This document shows positions 4,591 to 55,062 of a stretch of DNA of 64,000 bases, one piece after another. The position numbers were made by a program, and so were the translations under genes. The number at the start of each line of letters is the position of its first letter. The stretch's first letter is position 1. The stretch comes from Okamejei kenojei (lineage: Eukaryota): positions 19,778,001-19,842,000 of the forward strand of contig CM069147.1 in the NCBI GenBank assembly GCA_035221665.1. The letters run 5' to 3'. The notes under the pieces were generated by a model that did not search any database, had not been told where the DNA came from, and was given only the letters and a program-made list of their open reading frames with translations.

Positions 4591-5179
4591 ACTAATGGAC
4601 GTGATTTGTATGTGAGAATTTGAAATGGCATAAATTACTGCTACTGCTTTAAACAAGTTGAGGGACAGTGCAAATGACAATAATGTAAAGTAGTAAATGG
4701 ATATGGTTAAAATGTCACCTGTAGGCTAGGAGTGGTAGGAAGAATGTGAAGAGGGGTAACACGGGTGGGAAAAGTTAAAGAAAAGTGACGAAGTGCGGGC
4801 TTGCACTAAGGGAGTGGGAAGAGGAATAGACAGGATTACATTTGCTTGATATTGAGGGCGGGTGGGGGTGATTAAAAGAGCATGATACATCCTTGATAGA
4901 CAGGGTGTTTGATACCTGATGTAAACCAGCAGCTGCAGCTCCTTCCTATACACAATTAGAGCCTGGTGCAGTAGAGGGACCTTGTGAGACATGAAGTATT
5001 CCGTCGTTAGTGACGACTATTTGCATTTTCAATAGATAACCTCATCGTTTATTAAATGGCTGGTTAAGAGTGGTGTGAGTTTACCACAAAATGAGGGGAT
5101 AACATGACCCCCACTCCCTGTGGAATGGAATAGCATCTAAGGTCCCTCAGACAAGGAACAAAGCTCTGAATTTCCTGGG

Positions 5180-6640
5180 TTACACAAAAAGCTGGAGAAA
5201 CTCAGCGGGTGCAGCAGCATCTAAGGAGCGAAGGAGATGGGCGACGTTTCGGGTTGAGACACTTCTTCAGACTGGTCAGGGATCAGGGAAACGAGAGAGA
5301 TAGACGGTGATGTGGAGAGATAAAGAACAATGAATGAAAGATATGCAAAAAAGTATCGATGATAAAGGGAACAAGCCACTGTAAGCTGTGGTGTTTGTGG
5401 TGTGAAAATGAGAAGCTAGTGCAACTAGGGTGGGGGAGGGAGATAGAGATAGAGGAATGCCAGGGCCCGAGGGCTGAAGGAGAGGTGGGAAGGGGAGGAG
5501 ACAGCAAGGGTTAACAGAATTGAGAAAATTCAATGTTCAAGCGCAAAGGATGCAGACTCCCCAAGCGGAATATGAGGTGCTGTTCCTCCAACTTGCGGTG
5601 TTGCTCACTCTGGCCGTGGAGGAGGCCCAGGACCGAGAGGTCGGATACGGAATGGGAGGGGGAGTTGAAGTGCTGAGCCACCGGGAGGTCGGGTTGGTTT
5701 TTGCGGACCGAGCGGAGGTGTTCGGCTAAACAATCGCCAAGCCTCCGCTTGGTCTCACCGATATAGATCATCTGGCATCTGGAGCAGCGGATGCAGTAGA
5801 TGAGGTTGGAGGAGGTGCAGGTGAACCTCTGTCGGACCTGGAAGGACTGCTTGGGTCCCTGAAAGGAGTGGAGGGGGGAGGTGAAGGGACAAGTGTTGCA
5901 TTTCTTGCGGTTGCAAGGGAAAGTGCCCGGGGAAGGGGTAGAGCGGGAGGGGAGGGAAGAATTGACAAGGGAGTTGCGGAGGGAGCGGTCTTTGCGGAAG
6001 GCAGACGGGGGGAGATGGGAAGATGTGGCGGGTGGAGGGGTCACGTTGGAGGTGGCGAAACTGGCGGAGGACTATGTTGTATTTGCCAGCTGGTGGGGTG
6101 AAAGGTGAGGACCAGGGGGACTCTGCCCTGTTTGCGAGTGGGGGAATGGGGAGAGAGGGCAGTGTTGTGTGGTATGGAGGAGACCCTGGTGCGAGCCTCA
6201 TCAATAGTGGTGGAGGGGAATCCCTGTTCTCTGAAGAATGAGGCCATTTGTGATGACCTGGTGTGGAACACTTCATTAGAGATGGAGACTCTATAGAGGC
6301 GGAGACTCCCCCTCTCCGACACCGAACGGTCTGTCCTCAGAGGTCTTACCTTTGTTCCCCTCCGTCCCCACCTCAATGAGTTCCGCGCCCACAACTTGGA
6401 GCTCTTCTACCGTCGCCTCCGCCTGACACCGTTCTTCCATGGGAAGAAGTCCTCGCCCCCCCACTGATGATCCCTTTTCCTGTCTCCCACGTACCCCCTC
6501 CACTTGGACCCCCCCTCGTAGCTTTCCGGCTCCAGAACTATTTATCCAGAACTGCCGTCGGGACATCAACCGCCTCGACTTCTCCACTCCCCTGTCTCAC
6601 TCCAATCTCTTCCAGCCCTGAACGTACTGCCATCAACTAA
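5180..6640 (-). mobile_element. Penelope-like retroelement (GIY-YIG endonuclease), internally deleted
   Basis: ORF 5511-6044 has CNRKKCNTC, NLIYCIRC and IYIGETKRRL...EH motifs; hammerhead-type tail at 5241-5275. Confidence 0.9.
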
Positions 6641-22589: not shown

Positions 22590-23035
22590 TTGGTATTTCG
22601 CTTGGGTAGTCTACACCCGAGCAGTATCAACATTGACTTCTCTACTTTTAGATAACCTTTATCTTCTCCCTCCTCCCCTCCCCCGTCCCAGCTCTCTTTC
22701 TGGTCCTACTGTCTCAGCCTCTTCCTTTTTTTCCCCGCCACCCCCCCCCCATATCAGTCGGAAGAAGGGTCTCGACCCGAAACGTCGTCTATTCCTTCTC
22801 TCCATAGATGCTGCGTCACCCGCTGAGTTTCTCCAGGGGGTGAAAGATTGCAACTTTCATGTGGTCCACCCTGTTTTGAGGAATGCAATCATCCCGGCGT
22901 GCACAATCAAATAAGATCAAATAGAACATGTTGTCCTACAACTTTAGGCTGTGCACGCCATATGCAAGAAGATGTTTCTCTGGTATTTTTTGACTACCTT
23001 CGATTTTTTTGAGCATCTGCAGTTCTTTCTTAAAA
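22590..23035 (+). mobile_element. Penelope-like 3' fragment nested in the hAT
   Basis: ORF end (tttcgcttgggtagtctacaccc...aacattgacttctct) plus hammerhead-type tail at 22755-22790. Confidence 0.75.
22837..22972 (+). mobile_element. Older, degenerate copy of the ribozyme-headed retroposon
   Basis: Collinear with 42819-42960 from the same 5' GGGGTG start; inserted in a Penelope tail with a degenerate TSD (gtttctccag / gtttctctgg). Confidence 0.8.
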
Positions 23036-30039: not shown

Positions 30040-33000
30040 ACACGTCCGGTGATGCCATGACAGTGAAGGCTGTGTAATCGACCTGCTCTCCGGAAGGCCC
30101 TCTTCAAACCAGCCATAAGAAAGAAAAAGACTGTGACTTACGAGGAGAAAGGAGTGCTAACGGCTGTCTGAACATGATGGGTCGACATAAGGCGTCCGAG
30201 CGCGGAGAAAAAGGAAAGAATGAAGGTCAGAAACTGACAGACTCCCTGCAAGATAACGCCCAGTCCGACAAGGAAAGCCCGTTAATTCTCTCTGAGTTGA
30301 GAGAGTTGAGAAAAGAACACAAAGAAGCCTCAGAAGATACCAAACAGAGATTAACGAGAGTGGAGGATAAATTGAAGGATTTAACAACTCGAATGGAAAA
30401 GTTGGAAGAAAAATTGAAGGAAACGGAGGTCAAAGTTCAACAGAAGATAAGGAAATGAGACACGAGAGACTGATTAACTACCTGTTTCAGAGAGAAGCTA
30501 AGTTAGCAGAGAAATGCCTGGACCCGGAAAATCGAGCGAGGCGTAAAAATGTGCGGATATATGGAGACAAAGAGGGAAAGGAAAAAAAAGGACATGTTCC
30601 AGTTTGTAAATGAACTGTTGAGGAATTCTCTAGAACTCCCAGAAGATTTAACTATTAATATAGAGAGAGCGCACAGGTCCTTCGCACCAAGATCTATAAT
30701 AGTCAGATTTTTAGACTATTATACGAAAGATCTCGTGTTGCAACAGGCTTGGAAGCAGCGAAAGATAATATATGATGGGGACGGAGTGTATTTTGATCAA
30801 GACTACTCACCAGAAGTCCAGAGAAAGCGTAAGGAGGTACGACAGGTGATTAAGCAACTGCGGGAGGAAAATATTAAAGCCAAGTCTCCATTCCCTGCAC
30901 AGCTCAAGATCTTCCTAGATTCTGGAGGTTAAATCCTTCAGCACATTGACTGAGGCAGTACCTACACTGGAGAAGATGGGGATTTACATCAGATTGGAGT
31001 CCAGAGGTGTGTTGAATAGAGAACTGCTGCGAGGCCAATGGTCAGGGGGAACGAATAAAGCAAGCGGCCAGAGAGGATTGGCAAATCTGTCAGAGGAAGA
31101 TCTTCGCACCATACTGGGTATCAAAGGAGATGGACAAGTTTGAAATAACCACAGAAACGTGGGTCATATGTGCAAATGGTAAAATGTCTGAAAGAGACCA
31201 TTGAGTTAATGAAGTGGACAATTAACATCTATACAATCAGAAAAAGTATAAGATGAGACAAATAATATGTACATAGCTTGTACATATACTCTCTGGTCTT
31301 GTTTGTTGTCTTGATGAAGGGTAATTATGCCACGTTTTAGAGCACATATACGGTTGGTTTTGTAATGTATTATATTTTCTAATTGATTTAAATGTACTAT
31401 CAAAGAGAGGGATTGAGGGGAGCTCTCTCGGGTGGGGGGGAGATACCTGCCATTTATTTTTTGTTTATAATTGTAATTCAAAAGTCCCAAAGTGGGATTT
31501 AGAGCAACCTTACTGTAGTTGCAACCACACATAAGTGGGCTACCCAGGAGAGACCTAGTCACATCTCTTCGCCTTTTTATGAGGAGCTGGTACACCAGTT
31601 AGTTCAGGTTGTGCAGGTCCTATGTGTAAAGTTTTATTGTATATTGATTAAATGCTTTGTTTATTGTTTATCGATTTGTTAGTTGGGCAAATGTTTTTCA
31701 TTGTTACATCGCATCCTAGTAAATTGTATTTTGAGTACAGTGGATATTCACAGGCTAACCAGAGCAAGAAAAAAAAATGGTATAGAAAGCAACAAGTAGA
31801 TTACACAACGTGGGATAATGACTAATTTAAAGAAAGTAATTTAAAGTTATAACATCCATGGTTTAAATCACCCCATAAATATGAGAATAATTCTGAGCCA
31901 ACTCAAAAATTTAGGATGTGGAGTTGCATTGATTCAGGAAACACATCTGGTGGAAACTGAACATAAAAAGCTTAGAAGAGAGTGGGTTGGTGAGGTATTT
32001 AGTGCCTCCTATGGGAAAAGGAGAGGAGTGGCTATCCTTTCCAATAGAAATGTAGTTTTCTCTGTGGAAAAAGTACTCCAAGATACATTGGGGAGATATG
32101 CAATGGTAATTGGTACAATAAGTGGGATGGTAGTATCGATTATAAATATTTATGCACCAACGGAAGATGATTACTCTTTCTTTAGAGACATTGCAAATAT
32201 AATTGCAGAAAATGCCAAAGGTATGATAATACTAGGTGGTGATTTCAATGCGGTCCTTGATGGGAGGCTGGATAGATTACCAGATGAGTACAACCAAACA
32301 AAAATAAATAAATAAATAAATAAATAATATACTAGGGGAGTTAGGATTAGTTGACTCGTGGAGATATAAAAATCCAAGGGGGAGGGATTATAGTTTATTT
32401 TCGAACGTGCACGGGAGTTACTCACGTATAGACATAATAAAATCAAAATATTATGAGAAGGCAAATAGGGTTAGTTGCCTTCTGGCATTTCAGTTGCGTA
32501 AGGAGCAAGCTAATCGAGTAGTTTCCAAAGTTCTACATCCGATTTCTAGAAATTTATTTTCACAACCACGAGAAATTACAGAAGCGTTTGCATCCTTCTA
32601 TGAACAGTTATATGACTCTCCTGAAATCATAGATAAAGAGGAAAAGATCAGAACTGTCTTTTCTGGATTAAAAATGCCCTGCCTTTTTCAAGAAGAAGCG
32701 AGAAATATGACAACACAAATAGAAGAGCAGGAAATAAAAGAAGTAATAAAAAAATGAAAGAACAACAAATCCCCAGGGACGGATGGGATTCCAGGAGAGT
32801 TTTATAAATATTTTGAGAACGAGCTTTCTCCGATTCTGGCTAGAAACTATAATTATGCGTTGGCTGAAGGTAACCCACCGAGATCATGGGCCGAGGCTAT
32901 AATCTCTGTTATTTATAAGGAAGGGAAGGATCCCACAGGATGTGAAGGCTACAGACCGATAAGTCTCTTATGCAATGACTTTAAGATACTCAGTGCTATA

Positions 33001-34954
33001 TTAACCAAGAGAACCCAAAAATTATAAAACAATTGATACATCCTGATCAAATAGGATTCATACTGGGCAGACTGGGAGCCAATAATATTGGGCAGGTCCT
33101 GAATATCATGACATGTGCAAAAAGGAAGCATCAGACTTCAATGTTATTAAGTTTAGATGCTCAAAAGGCTTTCGACAGAGTAGATTGGATCTATCTTGAA
33201 TTTACACTCGATAAAATGGGGTTCCACACAAAATGTATTAATTGGGTGAAAACATTATATTTAAATTCAAAGTCAAGAGTGAGGGTAAATGGATGTTGCT
33301 CTGAGTTTTTTTAATTAAAGAGGGGAGTGAGACAGCGAGACAGTTTGAGTCCCCTCCTTTTTGACCTATGTTTAGAGCCGCTTGCAGAAACTATTAGGCA
33401 AGATGACTATATTGAGGGCATTAAAGATGATCGGGGGGGGGGGGGGGGGGGGGAACAAAAAATTTCACTATTTGCAGATGATGTTATGATCTGAGTAATC
33501 CTATTTCCTCAGTGCCTCGCCTAATGCAAGTCTTACAGGAATATGGAGAAATATCGGGATATAAAATAAATGACTCAAAATCAGAAGCAATGACGCTGTC
33601 AGGTCTGTGGCCCTTGCAATTAAATGATCAGGTCAGGTTCCATTGGTCTCGGGAGGGTTTTAGATATTTAGGTATTGTTATCACTTCCTCTATCACCGCA
33701 TTGTATGAAGCTAACTATGGTAAATTACTCAAGAAAATTAAGGCAGACATGCACAGATGGGATATTCTCCCTTTATCTCTAATTGGTAGAATGGAGGTTG
33801 TTCGAATCAACATTTTGCCCCGACTGCTTTTCTTATTTCAATCTTTACCAGTAGGGGTCCCTGGCGTGGCATGAGACAAAGAGTTAACAAGATTTGTGTG
33901 GCAACATAAGAGACCCATAGTCAGACTTACGACACTGTTGTTATCGAAACAAAAAGGGGGCCTAAATATGCCCAACTTTAAATATTATTATTGGACAGTG
34001 CAGCTGAAAACCTTGATAGCATGGTTAACGAATGATGAGGAAACGGGATGGGTGAAAATAGAACAAAATGCATGTCCTTGTATTGCCCTGGCTGGGCTCC
34101 CATTTCTAACTCAAGTAAATTGGAAGAAATTAAAAGTAGATAACGATTGGATTAAATTCACGATGAAAACGTGGTTAGCTATCAGAAAGCAATTAAATCT
34201 TTTTAATTCGATATCTAAAGCAATGAAGATAGCTGCTAGTCCCAATTTTATACCCAGCAAAATTGATAAGGGATTTAGAAACTGGGCCAATAAAGGGCTT
34301 ATTACTGTGGACCAGCTTTTTTGTGGGGGTCTTGAAATCTTATGAGCACTTGCAGAATGAATTTGGACTGTCAGGGTAGGATTTCTTTAGGTTCCTCCAA
34401 ATACGGCATATTTTTTGGGATTGTCCCAAATTGTACCAATACTGGAGAGACATCCAGGTAGAGATTAAATTAATTCTGGGAGTGGATCTACCTCTGGAAC
34501 CGGCTTGTTTTATACTAGGAGATACTCCAGCAGTGACAGATATTCAAAATCAGAAATATTTGCTTGGGGTGATGCTGTTGATTGCTAAAAAGATGATAAC
34601 AGTGCTATGGAGAAAGGTAATGCCACCAAATGTTCAACAGTGGAGGGAAAGATTGAAAAATGTATACTTGATGGAATGTATAACTGCTAAACTCCAGTTG
34701 AGGACTGATGCCTTTAATATTATATGGAAACTGGTACAATTACCAATGCCAAGATTGATTGAGGATATGAATGGATGAGCTTGCTCTGGTGCCTGTGAAT
34801 AAGATGCTTCTATGATAGAATGTTGAGGATTTGATGCAATGCTAATAGAGGTTAGGTGATTTGTATTTTGTCATTTTGCGATTGTCTTTTGTGTGTCTCT
34901 TTGTTTTGTCTGTATATGTATTTTGTTATGTCAATAAATGTTGAGTTAAAAAAA
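30040..34954 (+). mobile_element. L1 LINE with both termini (ORF1 plus APE-RT ORF2), degenerate, inserted in a CR1
   Basis: TSD aaatggtgtcaa at 30028-30039 and 34955-34966; AATAAA and poly-A; ORF1 IERAHRS..PRSIIVRF; ORF2 LIQETHL, GGDFN, SPGTDG, LSLDAQKAFDRV, LFADD, FRYLGI. Confidence 0.92.
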
Positions 34955-36605: not shown

Positions 36606-37833
36606 ACTACCCTCGAGGTCCTGCTTATAAATCTATTGCCTAACTCTCTATATTTACCCTGCAGGACCCCTGATCTTGGTCCCTGGCACCAGGGAGGCAA
36701 AATACTATTCGATAGTCGGTGTTTGTTGCCACATAATCCAGCACAAAACACGTATCCTAAACTGAAGGGCAGGATGCATTTCATAACCAGCCTTGAGCTT
36801 TACGCCAGCCTTGGCTGCCATAAGTTGCATGATTCCATTTATTTGAACAGATCATAAATCTTGATTGGAAAGGTAAATGTACTCAGTGGTTTGTTTATTA
36901 TGTTCCTTATGTATTAATTAATTTCTGGTAGTGTAAAGTGTTATAAAATACTACTATCCAGGACCTTCCAGGGACTGTGCCTAGAATCTGCTGCCTGAGC
37001 CGAGGTTTAGGTTTATTGTTGGGAGTACTAACATGGCAGAACCTACACAGTGGATGGTAGGGCTCTGGGGAGTGTTGAGTGTTGGAGAGTACAGGTCCAT
37101 ACTTAATTGAAAGATGATCAAAAAGGCTTTTGGCACATTCGCTTTCATCAGTTCAGAGCATAGAGTATATAAATTGTAAGGTTATGTTACAGTTGTAAAA
37201 GACGTTGGTGAGGCCACATTTAGAATGTTGTGTTCAGTTTTGAGCACCATGTTGTAGGAAAGATATTCTCAAGCTGGAAAGAGTGCAGAGAAGGATTTAC
37301 GAGGATGTCGCCATGACTCGAGAGCCTGAGCTATAGAGAGAGGTTAAGCGGGCTAGAGCTCTATTCCTTGGAGCACAGGAGGATGTGCGGTGATCTCACA
37401 GAGGTGTACAAAATAATGAGAAGAATAGATCGGGGTAGACTCTGAGTCTCTTGCCCAGAGTAGGGGAATTGAGAACCAGAGGACATAGGTACAAGCTCAG
37501 GGGGGGAAGGATTTAATAGGAACCCGATGGGTAACTTTTTCAAAGTCCGCAATATGTTCAGAGGTGGATCAGACAGCACCCTAGTGTAGAGAAGGTACAC
37601 AGACACCTTAAAGCCTTCACTACTTTATTAAGCATACATTATATATAGCCCTGGCTGTACGTGGTCTGTCACGATCACTAGAGAGAGAGCTAGGGGCGTG
37701 TGGGTTACAATTATACTAACTGGTGGGGGAGTGGTTAGCATGGACATCGTTACTATCAATTAAAGGTGTACACACATATCATCTACATCCTTCCTCTACC
37801 AAAACAAACAGTGAGTGACAGGGCGACCACATC

Positions 37834-40678
37834 TCATGCGTTAGGGTAAATGCAAACAGTAAAGCACAGGAATACAGGATCACACGTAATCGCCGTAACG
37901 GACCGGCGGCCTGACCAGGCGACCGGACCGGGTCCGCACCTTGCCATCACCTCCTTCCCCGACGGGAATAAGCGGGGATGCTGGGGCATGGTGGGGGCTA
38001 CGGATAGGAGAACCCTTTGGCGACGAAGGCATCGGGGGGAACGGCGAAGTGAAGGGCAAGGAAGCCGGAGAAAGCGGGACTGCAGCCGGGAGGCGTTCAG
38101 GAGGAGGACGAGGGGAGGTTGGCCCCAGAGGAACGGGCAATACATAGGGCCGCGACAGTGGCAGCGGGGGGGCATACGGAGCCGCCGGGGGAGGGAGAGG
38201 TGCTGGCAAGACCGGCGGTACACCCTTCCGTCGTGGTTGACAAGGTACGAACGAGGGGAACCGGCAGAACCGACGACCACGGCCAGCTTGGAACGGCCAG
38301 AAGAGGACCACATACGGACGACCTGGCCGGGGAGAAGAGGGCGGAGGACACGGCAGGACCTGTCGTGGGAACGCTTCTGGATACTGTGTTTTTGGGCAAT
38401 GCGTTCCCGGACCAAGGCAGGTTTAAAGACGGAGGGGGACAGGGACTGCTGAGACACCGGGACCGTGGGCCTCGTGACTCGGGACATGAGTCGCTGATCC
38501 GGGGAGCCCAGGGAACGGTCGCGGGAGATGTTGCGGAGGTTCAACAGGGCCAGGTAGATGTCGGAGCGGGATAGGCGACAACGTTCCAACAATCCTTTGG
38601 CACTGCGGACCGCGTGCTCGGCCAGTCCATTGCGGGTATTCCGGGCTGCTGGTGTAATGACGAAAGTTCCATCGTTCAGCAAAAGCGCGGAATTCGGCAC
38701 TGGTGAACTGGCTGCCGTTGTCCGACTGCAGGCTGACCGGAGACCCGAAGGTGGCAAAGTGGTGGCGCAATTTCTCGATGACCGCGGAGGAAGAGAGGGA
38801 GTGGAGCTGGTCAACTTCAAACCAGCTGGAGTAAGAGTCGACAAGCACCAGGAAGTGCTTTCCGTGCCACTCGAAGATGTCGGTTGCTAGCGCAGACCAT
38901 GGCAGGTCAGCAGCTGGCTGCTGCAGGAGCGGCTGCCGCTGTTGCTGTGGAGCGAGGCAGTTGCAGGTAGGGCACGCGGAGAACCTATCCCGGAAGTAGC
39001 GAGACATGTCGGGCCAGAAAAACTGGCTCTGAGCGATGGAAAGGGTCGCCTCAGCCCCAGGATGGCCACGATGAGCGGTTTCGAAGTATTGTTCTCGTAG
39101 TGCTTCGGGCACCACCACCTTGGGCCCCTTCACAATCACACCATCAAGCAGCACCAACTCGTCACGAACCAAGAAGTAAGGCACCGCTGCGGCCGGCAGG
39201 GAAGAACGGCGGTCTGGCCAACCCTGCTTGATGTTCGCGGCCAGCTGCTGTAGCGAAGCATCTGCTGCCGTGTGCTTGGCCAGGGACTGCAACTGACCGG
39301 AGGGCACGAAGTTAACGTTTAGGACTATCAGATCAGACGTCTCGTACGGATGTCGGGTTGTGGATGAGAGAGGCGCCCGAGACAGCGTGTCAGCAACAAA
39401 CATGTCCTTGCCCTTGCGATAAACCACTGTGAAAGTGAAGCGTTGTAGCTGGAGCATCATGTGCTGGAGCCGGGAGGAGGCCATGTGTATCGGCTTGTTG
39501 AGGATGGTGACCAGAGGCTGGTGGTCCGTCTCGACAGTGAAGCAGTTGCCCAGGATATAGTCTTTGAATTTGGAGCAGGCAAAGACAACCGCCAGCAGTT
39601 CTTTCTCAATCTGGGCATAGTTTTGTTCAGCGGTCGTCATTGTGCGGGATGCGTAGGACACAGGCAGTTGCACCCCGTCAAGGATCTGCAGGCAGGCGGC
39701 CCCGAGGCCAAACTTAGATGCATCATACGTGAGAACGTTGGGGCGCTGGAGGTCGAAGTACTTCAGTGAACGCACGCTGATCAGCTTAGATTTGAGGGTG
39801 TCAAATGCTCGCTGGTGCTGCGGGAACCAGGCCCAGGCAGTGTCCTTTTTCACCAGATCCCGCAGAGGGGCACTCAGTTCGCTCAGGTCGGGGATGAACT
39901 TTCCCAGGTAGTTGACCATGCCCAAGAAGCGCTGCAGGCCAGGCACATCAGCAGGTGCAGGCATCTCGGATATTGCGGCCGTCTTCTGCGGGTCGGGCTT
40001 CAGCCCCGATGCCGTGAAAACATGCCCTACGTAGGTGACCTCAGGGACCCGGAATCGGCACTTCTTCGGGTTGAGCTTCAGGTTGACCTCCCGGGCCCGC
40101 TGCAGCACCTGGCGAAGGTGGTGGTCGTGCTCAGCGACATTCTTCCCATAAACCAGGATGTCGTCGACAATGATGGCACACGGAAGTCCGGCAAACAGTT
40201 GTTCCATGGTCCTTTGGAACACCTCGCTGGCAGAGTTGATCCCAAACGGCATGCGGAGGAAGCGATACCTGCCGAAGGGCGTGCTGAAGGTCGTCAGGTG
40301 CGAGGATTGCTCGTCTAGAGGTATCTGCCAGAACGAACTCTTGGCATCAAGAACCGAGAACACGGTGGCAGGGCCGACCCGTGCAGCAACATCCTCCACC
40401 GTCCGCATGGGATAGTGCGGGCGCCTGATGGCCAAGTTTAAGTCCTTAGGGTTGATGCAGATCCGTATTTCGCTCTTGTCTTTCTTCGCAGCGACAGCCA
40501 TAGTAGAAACCCACCGGGTGGAGTCCGTTACTGGTTTCAGGATGCCCGTGGCCACCATCTCGCGAAGAGCAGACTCGACCTTGCCCCTCATGGCAAAGGA
40601 CACACGGTGCGGGGGACGGACGACCGGTGTGATGTCGGGATTGAGGGCAATCCTGTAGCTGCAGGGCAACTTCCCCAG
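37834..40678 (-). pseudogene. Gypsy Pol (RT-RNaseH-integrase) with an integrase frameshift near 38630
   Basis: RMPFG, IIVDDILV, DASKFGLGA, YAQIEKELLA, HRGHPG..CPTC, SDNGSQF; YPQ(S)NGLAE is split across frames. Confidence 0.88.
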
Positions 40679-41959
40679 CTACGAGTCAAACCGGTCCGGG
40701 AATTCAGCAAGTGGGTTCAGGGGTGCCTCTACCAGGTGGACATCACTGTGGAAGCTCACCAATCCGAGGTCCTGGCAGGCCTCCACGCCGAGCAGGGGGT
40801 CACATTTACCATCTAGCAGGAAGAAAGAGAGGGGCCGAGTGGTCTTCAGCACCTTGCAGTGGAGAGTTGCCCTCCCCACAGGAACAAGTATGCCACCCCC
40901 ATAGGCACGCAAAACAGCACTGTCTGTGGAAACGGGCTCATTATTTCTTATCTTCCTGAACAGGCTTGTTGGCATAACATTGGCAGCAGCCCCCGTATCG
41001 ACCTTAGCAGAGAAGGCCATGCCATTCACCGTGACTCGGACGGTCGGGTCCGTTATCAGAGCAGCTGCACCTCGCAAGGAAAACACACTCAGCTCGCTCT
41101 GGGAAGAGTCAGGGTCAGACGGGGAAAGATCATCGTGCTGGAGATGGGAACCAGACGCTGAATCATCACGTGTCAGGTAGCGAGACGGTTTCTGCTGTGG
41201 CAGTGCAGGGTTCCCACGGGAATGGCATGAAGCCGAGAAGTGGTTGGGCATGTTACAGAAATTACAGGTTTTCCCCAACGCCGGGCACACATTAAAACGG
41301 TGTGAGACAAAGTTACAATTTGGACATCGTTGAGGCAGTCTGAAGCCCTGCAGTGGTCTTACCCTCTGTCGCCGGGGAGCATTGTACTGGGGACCAGCGA
41401 GACTGGCTGTGTGGACCACAGGGTCAGGTACAGCGGAGGAGACGGCCTCAGCTAAACGAGAGGCATGCAGCGCCTCATCGAATGTCAGATCAGGCTTACG
41501 CAGCAGCTCAGAGCGCAGCTTATCATCCCGTAGACCAAAGACCAAGATGTCACGGGTCAAAGTATCAGGGGTCAGAACATGCAGGTCACATCGGCGAGCC
41601 AGTTGTCGCAGCGCGGCCACGAAATTGTCAATAGATTCCCCAGGGTTCTGGCGTCTGGAGAACAGTTTAAAACGCTCTAAGATGTGGTTAGTGGGAAGGT
41701 CACACAGCGCCATAAATTTAGCAAGCAGGCAATTAGGGTCCAGGATACTCTCACCCGGTCCATAGATGAACGATTCTGAACGCTCGAGTGCTTCGGGACC
41801 AGCCAGGTTAAGCAGCAGGGAAGCCTTGACAGCGGGGGCCACAGCAGGGTGAGCAATAGTAACATAGTGCTCAAAGTCCCGTCGGAACACACTCCAGCGA
41901 TGAGTGATGTCTGCATCAAAGACTAGGATGTCAGGTTTACGACAGGCAGAAGCCATCAC
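40679..41959 (-). CDS. Gypsy Gag-protease
   Basis: Zn-knuckle-like CPNC..H...C and CNFC..PNHF...C; protease VDTGA; ends at an in-frame TAG. Confidence 0.85.
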   Translation of the reverse strand: MMASACRKPDILVFDADITHRWSVFRRDFEHYVTIAHPAVAPAVKASLLLNLAGPEALERSESFIYGPGESILDPNCLLAKFMALCDLPTNHILERFKLFSRRQNPGESIDNFVAALRQLARRCDLHVLTPDTLTRDILVFGLRDDKLRSELLRKPDLTFDEALHASRLAEAVSSAVPDPVVHTASLAGPQYNAPRRQRVRPLQGFRLPQRCPNCNFVSHRFNVCPALGKTCNFCNMPNHFSASCHSRGNPALPQQKPSRYLTRDDSASGSHLQHDDLSPSDPDSSQSELSVFSLRGAAALITDPTVRVTVNGMAFSAKVDTGAAANVMPTSLFRKIRNNEPVSTDSAVLRAYGGGILVPVGRATLHCKVLKTTRPLSFFLLDGKCDPLLGVEACQDLGLVSFHSDVHLVEAPLNPLAEFPDRFDS

Positions 41960-42818
41960 GGCACAGGTAGGGGGTACTGGGACTAAGAAAATAAAGCGCG
42001 ATAGACCGGAGACGCAGAAAGAAGCACTTCTGACGCCATGTAGAGAAGGTACACAGACACCTTAAAGCCTTCACTACTTTATTAAGCTACATTATATATA
42101 GCCCTGGCTGTACGTGGTCTGTCACGATCACTAGAGAGAGAGCTAGGGGCGTGTGGGTTACAATTATACTAACTGGTGGGGGAGTGGTTAGCATGGACAT
42201 CGTTACTATCAATTAAAGGTGTACACACATATCATCTACACCTAGCTTGTGGAATGACCGTTCAGAAGCCTGATAACAGAGGGGAAGAAGCCGTTCCTGT
42301 GTCTGTTGATGTTTTCAAATGTTTTCCTGTTGGAAGCAGGGAGAAGAAGGACTGACAGCGAGGGACACATCTTTGATTATGTTGGTTGCTTTTCCGAGGC
42401 AGTGTGAAGTGTAGATGGACGAGTAATAGGAATTGGGATCCTTGGATAATAGGATCTTTGTTAGGATAGGGCTCAATTTTCATGAATAGATGGATCTGAG
42501 ATTCATGTGGCACCAAATAAAGCTAGGTTAGAATGTAATGTTCTGCTCTAAGGTTAATATTTAAAGTTTGCTGTAATATTTTATAGAAAAGCACGATTGT
42601 TGTTTAACATTCTGAGGGATCATCCAGTGAAGCTATGTGCGTACAACTGAGAAATAAGAATAGGGTGTTCACTCTAATGGGATTGTACTAAAGGCCTCCA
42701 ATAGTCAGTGGGAATTAGAGAAATAAATATTAGGGAAATCACAAATAGCTGCAAGAAAAATGTTTGTAACTGTGGGAGATTTTAACTTTCCAGATACAAA
42801 TGGGATCAAGTGTATCGT

Positions 42819-42872
42819 GGGGTGGAAGATTGCAACCTTCACGTGGTCCGCCCTGTTTCGACTAATGCAATC
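42819..42872 (+). ncRNA. Minimal HDV-like (double pseudoknot) self-cleaving ribozyme
   Basis: P1 GGGGTGG/CCGCCCT with G-U at position 1; P2 GATTGCA/TGCAATC; P3 ACC/GGT closing L3 TTCACGT; G42855 for P1.1; 1-bp P4 with TTCG loop; J4/2 CTAA with catalytic-position C42862. Confidence 0.8.
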
Positions 42873-42960
42873 AACTCGACGTGCACTAACGGAAGTTCAA
42901 ATAGAACAAGTTGTCCAACGACTTTAGGCTGTGCACGCCACACAAAAGAAGAAGAAGAAG
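42819..42960 (+). mobile_element. ~140-nt ribozyme-headed non-autonomous retroposon (SINE-like) with (GAA)n tail
   Basis: Flanked by direct repeat aagtgtatcgt(ggg) at 42808 and 42958; ends in gaagaagaagaag; a second copy lies at 22837-22972. Confidence 0.85.
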
Positions 42961-44179
42961 TGTATCGTGGGACATTGTGGAAAGATAGAGAAGAAATTGT
43001 GGTGCCACAAACAGGTATTTGTATCAACGGTAAGAACAGGTATGATACTGGAAGGTGGCTAATGTTGTACTTCTATTTAAGAAAGGCAAAGAAAAGCTTG
43101 AGAACTATAAACTGGTGAACTTAACATGAGTAATGGGTAAATTATTGGAGGCAAATCTGAGAGACAAGATATACAAGCATTTGGAAAGGCTAGGTCGATT
43201 AGGGATAGATAGTCATCATGGCTTTGTGTATGGGAAATCATGTCTCACAAATTTAACAAGTTTTTGAAGAGGTGCCCAAGAAATTCAATAAGGGAAATAC
43301 AGTAGATGTTTTCTCCATCAACCTTAGCAATGCATTTGACTGGTACCTCATGGTAGACCGGTCTGGAAATTTGGATCAGATGGGATCCAGGATGTTAGCC
43401 AATTTGTTACAAAAATGGCTTGTAGGAAGGAGACAGAGGGTGACTCTCTTTTCTGCATAGAATGGGAGGGTGAGTGGTTACCTTATAGAGGATTATAAAA
43501 AGTAATCGTGATGAGCCGCAGTTTTTTCCCCTAGATGGGTTAGTTTGAAACTACAGCATGTAGGTTAAGGAGAGAGTGAAAAGATTTAAACAGGACCTGA
43601 GGGTCAAATTTTTCCACACAGAGAGTGATGGGTATATGGAATGAGTGGTCAGAGAAAGTGTGGAGGTGGGTACAATTATGTAATTTAAAAGACACTTGCT
43701 AGGAAAGAGTTAGAGGGATAGGGGTCAGGCAAAGTAAGCAAGACTTGTTCATTTAGGCAACTTGGTTGGCTTGGAGGAGTTGGGCCAAATGGCCTGATTG
43801 CATGTTGTATAGCTCTATGACTTGTTTATATGGTAAATATCACCGGTGTTTCCTAAAAACAACTTGGTTGCCATGTTTTCTATACTAAACAGGAGCTATA
43901 TCAAAAGTACTTCATTGATTGAGAAGTACCTTGGCACATCCTGAGATCACGAATGGTGCGATGTAAATGCAACACTTTGTTCTTGCTAGGTGTTATTTGT
44001 GCAGGACTGCTAATGTCGGCACTGGGAAGATAAAGCCTCACAAGTCACCTGGTAATTTTATAATCCATTCCTAGTGGATAAATTGGAAGGACAGTTAATT
44101 AGAGGCCAAGAATGGATCAAAAGAAGATGGCCTAAACATTTTGCCCCTTCACTAACCCTGTGCAACTGTTTTCATTTAC

Positions 44180-49506: not shown

Positions 49507-50340
49507 CTGCACAGAATATAAAAGTTTTGAAAGCTTCAATTTTACCTTGACTTGAGGAGAATTTCAGTTACTATTCACAAATACATTGAGGTTACAGTAA
49601 TGATAACAGTACATTTCAGAAAATCATATATTGACCATAGGAAGTGAAAAATAAATTAAGGACTTATCCAACAATAATCTGTTCAGTAAACCCATGTCAT
49701 ACAGCAATATATTTTCAGATTTATCACCAGGGTGTGATTTTCTAAAGATCAATGCCTCTTTTCAAATGAAATGCACTTTTCTTAGAACATGGGTTAAATA
49801 ATATGTACTTCTCATCATGGTGGATGATAGATATTACAAATGCAGCTATTACAAATGATAAGTTGAGTAAATGATATTGGGGCATGATGGAGTCGCACAC
49901 AAGAACATAATGCAATACAGTAGGAATAATGCAAAAAAAAAACACTATATGGAAAACTTACTTGCACCTTTTAAGTATACTGGATTGAGACAGGATCAGC
50001 AGCTAAATTTGAGATTCCTAGGCTGAGAAATGTGAGAGTGAGATTGGATTATGGAGAACAAGTAGGATAGGGGTTGTGCTGCCAGATGAGAGTAGTTGGA
50101 GGGAGAAAATAAGAAAAAGGGAACGGATAGATTGGTCTGGCCGCATTTATAGTATTATGTTCAGTTCTGGGCACCATGTCATTGGAAAGATGTTGTCAAG
50201 CTGGAAGGGTACGGAGAAGAGGGTCTGAGCTATAGGGACTATAGTCCTTGGAGCACAAGAGGATGAGGGGTGATCTTAAAGTGGTGTATAAAATCATGAG
50301 AGGAATAGATCGGGGAGATGCACAGTCTCTTGCCCATAAG

Positions 50341-51600
50341 AGGTGTCACTCCAACCCTAGCAACAGGGAAGAAATGGACTCCAGCAGCAGTGGTACTGGA
50401 CGCAAAATCCGCCCTCCAACACCAGGACATGGTGGGCCATGTCAAACAAGGCCGAGGAGGCTTTGGCCGGAGAGCAATGAAACCTACCTGGCAAAAGGCT
50501 ACTCCAGCTGAACGTCGGCACCTGGTGGTGGGAGGTGCGCCACCAAGAAGAAGCAGCCAGGTGTGCCAAAGCCATATCCTAAGCCAAACAAGGCCGCTGG
50601 ATGACGTTGAGAGGAGGAAGATCACATGGAGAGAGCTGTGGACCATGGAGTCAAATAAGTTGAGCTTCATTATCAGAGCCACATATGACGTCCTTCCCTC
50701 TCCCAGAAAATTTATAAATGTTTGGCTGGGAGAGGATCCAGCCTGCCCCCTGTGTGCAGTTCCAGCAAACCTCAAGCGCATCCTGGTCGGTTGTAAGACC
50801 AGCCTAACACAAGGCAGATACACCAGGCGACACAACCAGGTGCTGAGGTATTTGGCCGCTGAACTCGAGTGCAAGAGAGTTACCACCAACGCCATGCCTA
50901 TCAATGCCCAGATAACATTCCCGCAAATACCATCCTTCATCCGGGAAGGAGAGAAATGGAGGACTAACCCCTCGCCTCTCAACTCATGCCCACTGAACGC
51001 AGCCAGGGACTGGGAAATGCGTGTTGACCTAGGCCAGAGGCTTTCGTTCCCAGTTGAAATCGCAGTTCTCTGGTCCAACTCCTGTCGGCGTGTTTTCATC
51101 ATTGAGCTGACGGTCCCATGGGAGGAGGCTGTGGACGAGGCTTATGAAAGGAAAAAGCAGAGGCAGAGGAGAGAGGTTGGAGGATAACGGTGTGTCCAGT
51201 GGAGGTGGGGTGCAGGGGCTTTGTAGCCAGTTCCACTGCAAGGCTCCTGAGGGAAGTAGGAGTCAAATGGCAGGCACAAAGGAGGGCAATAAAATAACTT
51301 GCCAATTCCGCCGAACGGAGCAGTCACTGGCTGTGGCTGAAGAGGAAAGATGCTGTCTGGGCTGCCACGTGACCATCTAGAGGCTAATAATAAGACACAC
51401 ACCCAGGTCTGATCAACCTGCGGTGGGCCTGCCTCGACTGAGGGTGTCTTGTGATAAATGGCCGAAACACTCAGTGACGTTGAGGTACACAACTGAAGAT
51501 GTGTCTGATTGTTAGCAAATTCACCTAGTGGTCATACCCAAGAATGTCAATTGTAGTGAAATCTTAGGAAGTTGTAACACCCAGTCCTATTAATCAACCA
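50341..51600 (+). mobile_element. R2-superfamily (HERO-like) non-LTR element, 3' fragment with restriction-like endonuclease
   Basis: ATYDVLPSP, CPLC....C Zn finger (H to R), RHNQVL, IIELTVPWE; inserted within a CR1 3' end (50140-50340 and 51601-51880). Confidence 0.85.
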
Positions 51601-53965: not shown

Positions 53966-55062
53966 CTAATCTTCAGAGAACGGGGATTCCCCTCCCCCAC
54001 TATAGATGAGGCTCGCACCAGGGTCTCCTCCATACCCCGCAACACTGCCCTCTCTCCCCATTCCCCCATTCGCAAACAGGGCAGAGTCACCCTGGTCCTC
54101 ACCTTTCACCCCACCAGCCGGCAAATACAACACATAGTCCTCCGCCAGTTTCGCCACCTCCAACGTGACCCCTCCACTCGCCACATCTTCCCATCTCCCC
54201 CCCTGTCTGCTTTCCGCAAAGACCGCTCCCTCCTCAACTCCCTTGTCAATTCTTCCCTTCCCTCCAGCTCTACCCCTTCCCCGGGCACTTTCCCTTGCAA
54301 CCGCAAGAAATGCTACACTTGTCCCTTCACCTCCCCCCTCCACTCCTTTCAGGGACGCAAGCAGTCCTTCCAGGTCCGACAGAGGTTCACCTGCACCTCC
54401 TCCAACCTCATCTACTGCATCCGCTGCTCCAGATGCCAGATGATCTATATCGGTGAGACGAAGCGGAGGCTTGGCGATCGTTTGGCCGAACACCTCCGCT
54501 CGGTCCGCATTAGCCAACCCGACCTCCTGGTGGCTCAGCACTTCAACTCCCCCTCCCATTCCGCATCCGACCTCTCGGTCCTGGGCCTCCTCCACGGCCA
54601 GAGTGAGCAACACCGCAAGTTGGAGGAACAGCACCTCATATTCCGCTTGGGGAGTCTGCATCCTTTGGGCTTGAACATTGAATTTTCTCAATTCTGTTAA
54701 CCCTTGCTGTCTCCTCCCTTCCCACCTCTCCCTCAGCCCTCAGGACCTGGCATTCCCTCTCTCTCTATCGCCCTCCCCCACCCTAGTCGCACCAGCTTCT
54801 CATTTTCACACCACAAACAGCTTACAATGGCTTGTTCCCTTTATCATTGATACTTTTTTGCATATCTTTCATTCATTGTTCTTTATCTCTCCACATCACC
54901 GTCTATATTTCTCGTTTCCCTGATTCCTGACCAGTCTGAAGAAGGGTCTCGACCTGAAACGTCGCCTATCTCCTTCGCTCCTTAAATGCTGCTGCACCCG
55001 CTGAGTTTCTCCAGCCTTTTGTGTACCCTCGATTCTCCAGCATCTGCAGTTCCTTCTTTAAC
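53966..55062 (+). mobile_element. Penelope-like retroelement 3' part (GIY-YIG), young
   Basis: Near-identical inverted counterpart of 5180-6240; IYIGETKRRLGDRLAEH; tail with an intact hammerhead core. Confidence 0.9.
54933..54966 (+). ncRNA. Minimal hammerhead ribozyme motif in a Penelope tail
   Basis: CTGAAGA-A-GGGTC-TC-GACCT-GAAA-CGTC: conserved core, stem II, palindromic ACGT in place of stem III. Confidence 0.6.

Follow-up and report, generated by a model that had tools for sequence, protein, structure and literature searches.

A short retroposon of Okamejei kenojei headed by a predicted P4-less HDV-like ribozyme, with both ends derived from one Vingi-like LINE

A repeat of about 140 nt in the genome of Okamejei kenojei begins with a sequence that can be folded into a small ribozyme of the HDV-like type. 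How such a unit arose, and how it is spread, is the question raised by this locus. The repeat resides in a stretch of 64,000 nucleotides (assembly GCA_035221665.1, contig CM069147.1, positions 19,778,001 to 19,842,000), the whole of which is called here the window. A sequence-only reading had assigned it to an independent SINE-like family which borrows the reverse transcriptase of a LINE, possibly of the RTE type. Loci analyzed elsewhere in the genome are denoted by L numbers, and public runs by X numbers.

The element and the fold of its head

The features of the element are listed in Table 1. The flanking duplication had been measured at 11–14 bp, with the first GGG of the element overlapping it. 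The duplication is present, but the G run opens nearly all other copies and is part of the element; the TSD therefore measures 11 nt (42808-42818 and 42958-42968), and GGG at 42969-71 is flanking DNA. The GAA-type tail described earlier was found as an (AAG)n run. A 3' stem enclosing two hairpins had also been drawn: the stem (42880-86/42931-37) is predicted again, whereas the near-consensus copy L009 folds without the first inner hairpin. The folding energy of the whole element, calculated with a program unable to form pseudoknots, gave no signal against shuffled sequences (z 0.06, -0.01 and -1.7), the 3' part reaching z -1.5. As read by eye, part of the junction region is a short tandem duplicate of the 5' segment's end, and most of the differences between subfamilies are found in this region. 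A second, older copy in the window is decayed, has the catalytic C replaced, and sits inside another repeat.

Table 1. Coordinates of the element, of its predicted ribozyme and of a second copy in the window
Feature	Position	Strand	Basis or remark
5' TSD copy, 11 nt	42808..42818	+	identical to 42958-42968
Predicted P4-less HDV-like ribozyme fold, derived from the LINE family D 5' end	42819..42872	+	parse, cross-family covariation, RNA reads at the L009 equivalent
Predicted cut	5' of G42819 (G1)	+	HDV-like fold
P1	42819-25/42848-54	+	G1.U pair at predicted cleavage site
J1/2	42826-27	+	sequence parse
P2	42828-34/42866-72	+	sequence parse
P3	42835-37/42845-47	+	sequence parse
L3, 7 nt	42838-44	+	sequence parse
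P1.1, 1 bp	C42840-G42855	+	sequence parse
Putative catalytic C, first base of 4-nt J4/2	C42862	+	sequence parse
ATG at J4/2-P2 junction	42865..42867	+	in frame with parent APE-RT ORF; few codons in short element
Remainder of LINE-derived 5' segment, including stem 5' arm 42880-42886	42873..42890	+	LINE D matches, duplex prediction
Junction region, ~20 nt	42891..42910	+	by-eye reading; no LINE match
LINE-derived 3' segment: last ORF codons, TAG stop (42925-27), ~20-nt 3' UTR, terminal motif	42911..42945	+	LINE 3'-end matches
3' arm of long-range stem	42931-37	+	within 3' UTR
(AAG)n tail	42946..42957	+	same tail on LINE families A-D
3' TSD copy, 11 nt	42958..42968	+	first bases continue tail repeat
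Second copy, older subfamily	22837..22972	+	82% identical over 136 nt

The segment 42819-42872 parses, on the plus strand, as a nested double pseudoknot of the HDV-like type from which P4 is missing. Every helix of the minimal double pseudoknot proposed earlier was found in place, including the G-U pair at the cut, the single P1.1 pair formed by G42855, and C42862 at the catalytic position of J4/2. One detail is read differently. A P4 reduced to a T-A pair around TTCG had been suggested; the sequence is better read as devoid of P4, the place of U42856 being that of the U.U in P1.1, an arrangement known from CPEB3 (PMC4836649). As only 7 nt separate P1 from the catalytic C in the descriptor match described below, no P4 domain is present. 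L3 and P1.1 are laid out as in CPEB3, with one G-C pair plus U.U, and U20 and G25 in L3.

A generic HDV descriptor, which was made after the site had been seen and allows 0–30 nt in J1/2 and 4–60 nt in the place of P4, matched the 64-kb window exactly once, at 42819-42872, and had no match in 40 out of 40 dinucleotide-shuffled windows. The Rfam scan of the window yielded no match reaching the gathering score; HDV models expect P4, which the element lacks. RF02682 (HDV-F-prausnitzii), the best of the ribozyme models, aligns exactly to 42819-42872 below threshold (16 bits, E 2.2, gathering 44), an alignment which by itself is no evidence for a ribozyme, and the copies L009 and L035 of the short element gave no Rfam match up to E 5. 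The HDV-like fold is confirmed as an observation made on sequence; cleavage itself is predicted.

A classical SINE head of tRNA, 5S or 7SL origin was not recognized: the head is LINE-derived, and neither a tRNA gene nor an Rfam match was found in the window. Four T in a row do not occur in the element, and A and B boxes were judged by eye only.

Support for the fold comes from the LINEs described below, as all five families (A to E) begin with it. In a MAFFT alignment of nine heads of A–E, 97% of the cells of P1, P3 and P1.1 are paired, and 6 of 11 pairs exhibit changes on both sides, including P1.1, which is changed from C-G to U-A in family A; this count excludes P2, the rows are related, and the structure was taken from one of them. 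None of 500 shuffles reached the observed pairing, controls with slid structures gave 42–55%, and only 7 columns are invariant. A script gave the P2 parse for B, D and E; in A and C, P2 and J4/2 were assigned by eye. The generic descriptor recovered 5 LINE heads among 26 loci and missed all A and C heads; the LINE heads L227 and L247 have the same parse as 42819-42872. With RF02682, family B heads scored 32.7 and 31.6 bits; the RF00094 score of one C head was 27.2 bits. All these values lie below gathering. Families A, B, C and E have 17–55 nt in the place of P4, and family D alone lacks it. The compensatory changes in four sister LINE families support the predicted HDV-like fold. The covariation expected earlier is thus seen between families, but not from copy to copy, as is expected for neutral copies.

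The surroundings of the element are rich in other repeats. The insertion sits in a decayed CR1-like LINE (window 42700-43400; RT match at about 43049-43390, 43%, E 5e-18), with an endonuclease-like motif, seen by eye, just upstream. An LTR element, which its motifs lead us to take as Gypsy-like, occupies the minus strand of 37585-42240; its terminal repeats measure 203 bp and are 99.5% identical, and it has long frames resembling gag and pol. Likewise from their motifs, two copies 95% alike (5178-6237 and 53970-55028) are presumed to be Penelope-like, 30078-34778 a broken L1/Tx1-like LINE, and 50309-51187 an RLE-type LINE fragment.

Copies, parent LINE and sister families

A multi-copy retroposon with a common 5' end had been anticipated, and was found. 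A 139-mer run against the 2.76-Gb genome gave 1303 first-look candidates, the best 40 of which are 96–100% identical. Exact matches number 10,080 for a 3' 18-mer and 9,563 for a 5' 22-mer (reversed controls 0), and cross-matching of the end patterns (12/30 and 13/30, the samples being taken within the first 7 Mb of a single contig) led to an estimate of about 23,000–24,000 copies. Thirty loci were picked solely by the 3' pattern, and 29 were retained after removal of one segmental duplicate. In this set, chosen by 3' end, 27 copies start at position 1, which is the predicted cleavage G, one starts at position 2 and one is truncated. A TSD adjoins G1 in 19 of the 29, and measures 11–15 nt in 18 and 6 nt in one. 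C44, A46, A47 and G37 are invariant in all 29 copies; U20 is found in 28, G25 and G1 in 27. A catalytic C opening J4/2, U20 and G25 in L3, and a purine-pyrimidine pair at G1 are features of HDV-like ribozymes (PMC10879173, PMC4836649). Variation in the head mostly falls at tolerant sites (A or G in J1/2, the second J4/2 base, CpG sites); U29C, which breaks the outer P3 pair, occurs in 7 of 29.

The sequence is nearly unchanged (share 0.89–1.00) in 20 of 24 listed public runs, which come from 12 studies, 8 organisms and a metagenome, one run being on record as RNA; presence in these runs denotes spread, not expression. Four copies selected by their 5' end and followed by odd DNA (L100, L102, L106, L116) were considered as LINE heads and rejected, being copies interrupted or cut by later events. 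A segmental duplication (L069/L072, 98.5% over 1.6 kb) includes one copy of the element, and the pairs L187/L188 and L233/L234 resemble it.

The partner LINE was searched by two routes. Loci retrieved with Pfam PF14529 were CR1-like, Nimb-like or of other CR1-group types, and the head or tail of the element was found in none of 50. At L159, one of the loci analyzed, lies an apparently recent LINE whose two long open frames measure 401 and 1276 aa, and which we take to be Nimb/I-like. With a degenerate pattern built from the Ingi/Vingi endonuclease motif, 114 matches were obtained (15 with the control), and these fell into at least five families (A to E).

The short element corresponds to the first ~75 and the last ~45 nt of the 3.1-kb family D LINE. 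Its head matches the D copies L203, L204, L206 and L207 at 87–92%, through nt 72–77; its 3' segment matches the 3' ends of L201, L205, L206, L210 and of most of L251-L280. L205 spans 3.1 kb, with the element head at one end and the element tail, including the ORF stop, at the other. The dependence on a LINE sharing the 3' stem and tail, postulated earlier, thus finds its partner in the same genome, while the notion of an independent family is abandoned, since head and tail both come from one LINE. Only the two termini of one autonomous LINE are present, without the ORF, and the TSD, the shared tail and the dispersed copies are marks of TPRT. The short element is accordingly classified, from sequence comparison, as a non-autonomous, bipartite internal-deletion derivative of the Vingi-like LINE family D. 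Longer internal-deletion derivatives with both ends were also seen (L206, L210, L216, L223), measuring ~0.5–0.9 kb in D and ~460 nt in B.

Family D yielded 754 first-look candidates for the 3' region vs 41 for the 5' region. Of 30 D loci, 3 start at position 1, 5 at 2–5, 8 at 7–13 and 14 further in; the 8 copies starting at nt 7–13 (among L221-L250) begin just beyond P1's 5' strand, in contrast to the short element, which is nearly always complete. Non-CpG divergence from consensus is 3.1% in family D, a figure biased by the use of best hits, and 3.3% and 4.3% in two subfamilies of the short element, so that LINE and derivative seem of like age. All the family D copies seen are decayed, and none has an intact ORF.

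RT was found in D (RVT_1, E 9e-29), APE and RT in fragments of B and C, and no RNase H match in ten LINE fragments. The close relatives are proteins of ~1000 aa, with APE and RT in 6 of 7 and without RNase H in 7 of 7; the next relatives, single-ORF proteins of 1260–1300 aa, have RNase H in 3 of 3. In an RT tree, families A–E and the close relatives form one clade of 12 rows (support 100/99), apart from RNase-H-bearing, Nimb-like and CR1-like rows, in a set without named Vingi or RTE elements. A PDB search retrieved distant RTs only, and the names of relatives were uninformative. The parent LINE is called Vingi-like for its architecture (compact single ORF, APE plus RT, no RNase H), and an RTE partner, suggested earlier from the tail, does not fit it. 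Vingi elements devoid of RNase H beside RNase-H-bearing relatives are the pattern reported for Vingi and Ingi in a review (PMC13708176).

Two family B copies, L215 and L217, are 98.8% identical over 2.1 kb; this younger Vingi-like family, which has the same terminal motif and tail, is a possible second driver. A second ribozyme-headed short element of ~195 nt (L155:5351-5549, minus strand) derives from a B-related LINE, with ~25 nt of its 3' end. Allowing 2 mismatches, 560 heads of the B type were counted, and 469 with the variant J1/2, numbers far above that of the B copies having the endonuclease motif. A second abundant, family-B-related miniature is therefore likely, the L155 copy being the one short element identified among B-like heads.

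RNA ends, proposed mechanism and alternatives

RNA reads were aligned to L009. In three of three raw RNA runs loose read ends lie directly before G1 (L009:1501), with a consensus corresponding to a template-switch adapter. The runs (X21, X23, X24) come from 2 studies on one organism, possibly of a species other than that of this genome, and few loci may dominate them. The adapter precedes G1 in 1349 of 3720 reads of X21 (agreement 0.78, median 31 nt), 449 of 2992 of X23 (0.42) and 571 of 2982 of X24 (0.45), the last two being mixed with genomic flanks; the contig run X17 had no adapter row before G1 among the rows listed. Three G of the adapter are retained in the loose-end consensus besides the four G of the element, which argues against strand invasion. 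X21 reads are sense-biased, about 3 to 1, and carry oligo-A right behind the terminal motif, a possible trace of priming at the AAG tail. Part of the element RNA is read-through, as denoted by the reads whose flanks are long and unrelated (255–310 per listed row), and no pile of bare read starts at G1 appeared among the rows listed. Many RNA 5' ends are thus located at G1, with a blur of 1–3 nt caused by the G run and the adapter Gs, and are compatible with cleavage or initiation. Lopsided CpG decay at the catalytic C (in X21, G45A 14%, C44U <5%) was considered as a sign of selection and discarded, other CpG pairs being equally lopsided.

The reading which we regard as probable is that the element is transcribed from host promoters, cleaves itself at G1, and is reverse transcribed at a nick by the family D protein. 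An internal deletion would have joined the first ~75 nt of LINE D (ribozyme and first codons) to its last ~45 nt. A copy lying within a host transcript would fold and cut 5' of G1, shedding the upstream RNA; the APE-RT, supplied according to the sequence relationships by family D, would bind the 3' end, nick the DNA, and prime on the AAG tail by micro-homology to the target, a step which would yield the 11–15-nt TSDs. As a short RNA with a fixed 5' end, it would give rise to copies nearly all complete and able to act again as sources, and this, it is proposed, is why the short element is about 30 times as numerous as its parent, most copies of which are truncated. The passage from fold to cut, and that from RNA to protein, we infer by analogy with R2, L1Tc and NARTc (PMC6765202, PMC4035085, PMC3414825).

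In the foremost alternative, which has the same bipartite origin and to which we give a small but real weight, G1 would chiefly be the point where transcription initiates from an internal promoter of the head, as in Pr77, cleavage playing a minor part or none. This case predicts template-switch reads and uniform genomic 5' ends just as well, the element has no four-T run, and loose words resembling A and B boxes can be read by eye in its head; Pr77 of L1Tc and NARTc is moreover promoter and ribozyme at once (PMC4035085, PMC3383444), so that the two functions could coexist here too. Unlike a promoter, the heads of families A–E conserve pairing and not sequence, as the few invariant columns denote, the start coincides with the first P1 pair in families of differing sequence, and the head is not tRNA-like.

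It is quite improbable, in our opinion, that the short element retains the fold only as an inactive relic, and that the ends at G1 are left by blocked 5' exonucleases or stopped reverse transcriptase. The frequency of U29C and the presence of P4 in the other four families, and not in D, would suit this idea, as would the protection from 5' exonucleases ascribed to the R2 ribozyme fold (PMC13708176). P4-less ribozymes are, however, active in vitro (PMC10879173), the key residues C44, A46, A47 and G37 are kept in all the copies sampled, and a reverse transcriptase reaching G1 would already have unwound P1. An independently arisen ribozyme-headed SINE borrowing an RTE reverse transcriptase, brought to mind by the AAG tail and by RTE elements reported with such ribozymes (PMC5786205), is largely refuted and very improbable, since head and tail match one LINE family and the RT groups (100/99, in a tree without an RTE reference) with ~1000-aa APE-RT proteins, RNase-H-bearing single-ORF proteins coming next, according to the Vingi/Ingi pattern (PMC13708176).

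To self-cleavage followed by mobilization in trans, a more tentative step may be added, in which the sequence behind the ribozyme would pair with the 3' UTR and close the RNA, the duplex being recognized in part by the protein. Scored in a duplex matrix, the 40 nt from the 3' strand of P2 onward have the cognate last 32 nt as best partner, by row in 5 of 5 cases and by column in 4 of 5. Cognate energies are -19.0 (A), -19.9 (B), -16.3 (C), -14.6 (D) and -11.2 (E) kcal/mol; the family D head pairs with the tail of the short element as well as, or better than, with its own. Against shuffles, p did not exceed 0.05 for A, B, C or the short element; D copies gave mixed values (0.10 and 0.003) and E gave 0.25, with windows and test chosen after the pattern was noticed, and a palindrome contained in the D arm. 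The 3' stem noted earlier is the family D version of this duplex. The ~195-nt element of L155, known from one copy, has both arms changed and the pairing retained (p 0.001–0.014), and a duplex of -14 or better is formed in 17 of the 21 scorable copies of the short element (9 of 30 were unscored).

Families A, D and E have the AUG of the ORF at the J4/2-P2 junction; it is absent there from B and C, which use later AUGs. In 6 of 11 A, 2 of 2 E and 1 of 3 D copies, the junction AUG lies in the frame of the ORF, which stays open as far as the APE motif; in A and E this AUG is the sole element-derived one there. The 3' UTR of family A pairs with the P2 strand which holds the AUG. The small RNA head of A, D and E may switch between cleaving, translating and templating, or the AUG may lie at the junction by chance, AU being common there in the fold. 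As a broader model, to which we would give somewhat less than even weight, RNAs of Vingi-like LINEs may be closed by a 5'-3' clasp made, in family-specific sequence, by 20–35 nt behind the ribozyme and the ~25 nt of 3' UTR before the terminal motif, with one head possibly serving all three functions; the P4-less ribozyme would have arisen by loss of P4 in family D, and been then amplified to some 23,000 self-cutting sites within transcripts of the host. If RT needs the clasp duplex, this would explain the spread of only two-ended derivatives, left open in PMC5786205, as well as the use of both UTRs on engineered Vingi templates (PMC13708176).

Relation to known systems

In the literature searched, we found no description of the short-element family, of a Vingi ribozyme or of the 5'-3' duplex, and no P4-less ribozyme in an animal genome nor an animal library with RNA ends at a cut of this kind. 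A screen of eukaryotes for minimal HDV-like ribozymes covered human, mouse and protists (PMC10879173). P4-less HDV-like ribozymes, tied to gut phages, and called unexplained as to origin and function in the same paper, would gain a plain job in an animal genome, and Vingi-like LINEs would join the ribozyme-headed clades. About 23,000 copies of a 54-nt putative self-cutter represent a natural mutagenesis library, and copies in sense orientation could cut host pre-mRNAs. Five families of differing sequence make the clasp and the AUG-in-core ideas directly testable. Vingi proteins serve as gene-insertion tools, and a natural template of 140 nt marks the minimal cis-elements.

The architecture as such is already known from NARTc, R2 SIDEs and bipartite Vingi elements. 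NARTc/NARTco and RIME, derived from L1Tc and ingi, are likewise made by the 5' and 3' ends of Ingi-group LINEs joined by internal deletion, and carry a ribozyme of the HDV-like type at the very 5' end, that of NARTco having been shown to be active (PMC4035085). Elements of the NARTc kind are trypanosomatid, and their ribozyme has P4 and a promoter role; the element described here resides in an animal, measures ~140 nt, lacks P4, ends in an AAG tail and is repeated ~23,000 times. Drosophila R2 SIDEs also combine a ribozyme with the parent 3' end, and are mobilized in trans, but are rare, rDNA-specific, and depend on an RLE-type parent, in contrast to the dispersed, abundant repeats and the APE-type parent found here (PMC3414825). 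Vingi-1_EE, a non-autonomous Vingi, is similarly bipartite, and comes from a compact single-ORF APE-RT LINE without RNase H (PMC5786205).

As to the ribozyme, CPEB3 has the same P1.1, made by one G-C plus U.U, with U20 and G25 at the same positions of L3, but is single-copy, intronic and provided with P4, whereas the present fold is multi-copy, dispersed and P4-less (PMC4836649). Theta features, such as a phage genome and a tRNA 3' end at the cut, were not found: the context is that of a retrotransposon, and the window holds no tRNA. Minimal P4-less HDV-like and theta ribozymes share with it the lack of P4, a catalytic C at the first position of J4/2 and the cut at G1; about 99% of them reside in gut phages, beside tRNAs, while the fold described here heads an animal retrotransposon whose sister families have P4 (PMC10879173).
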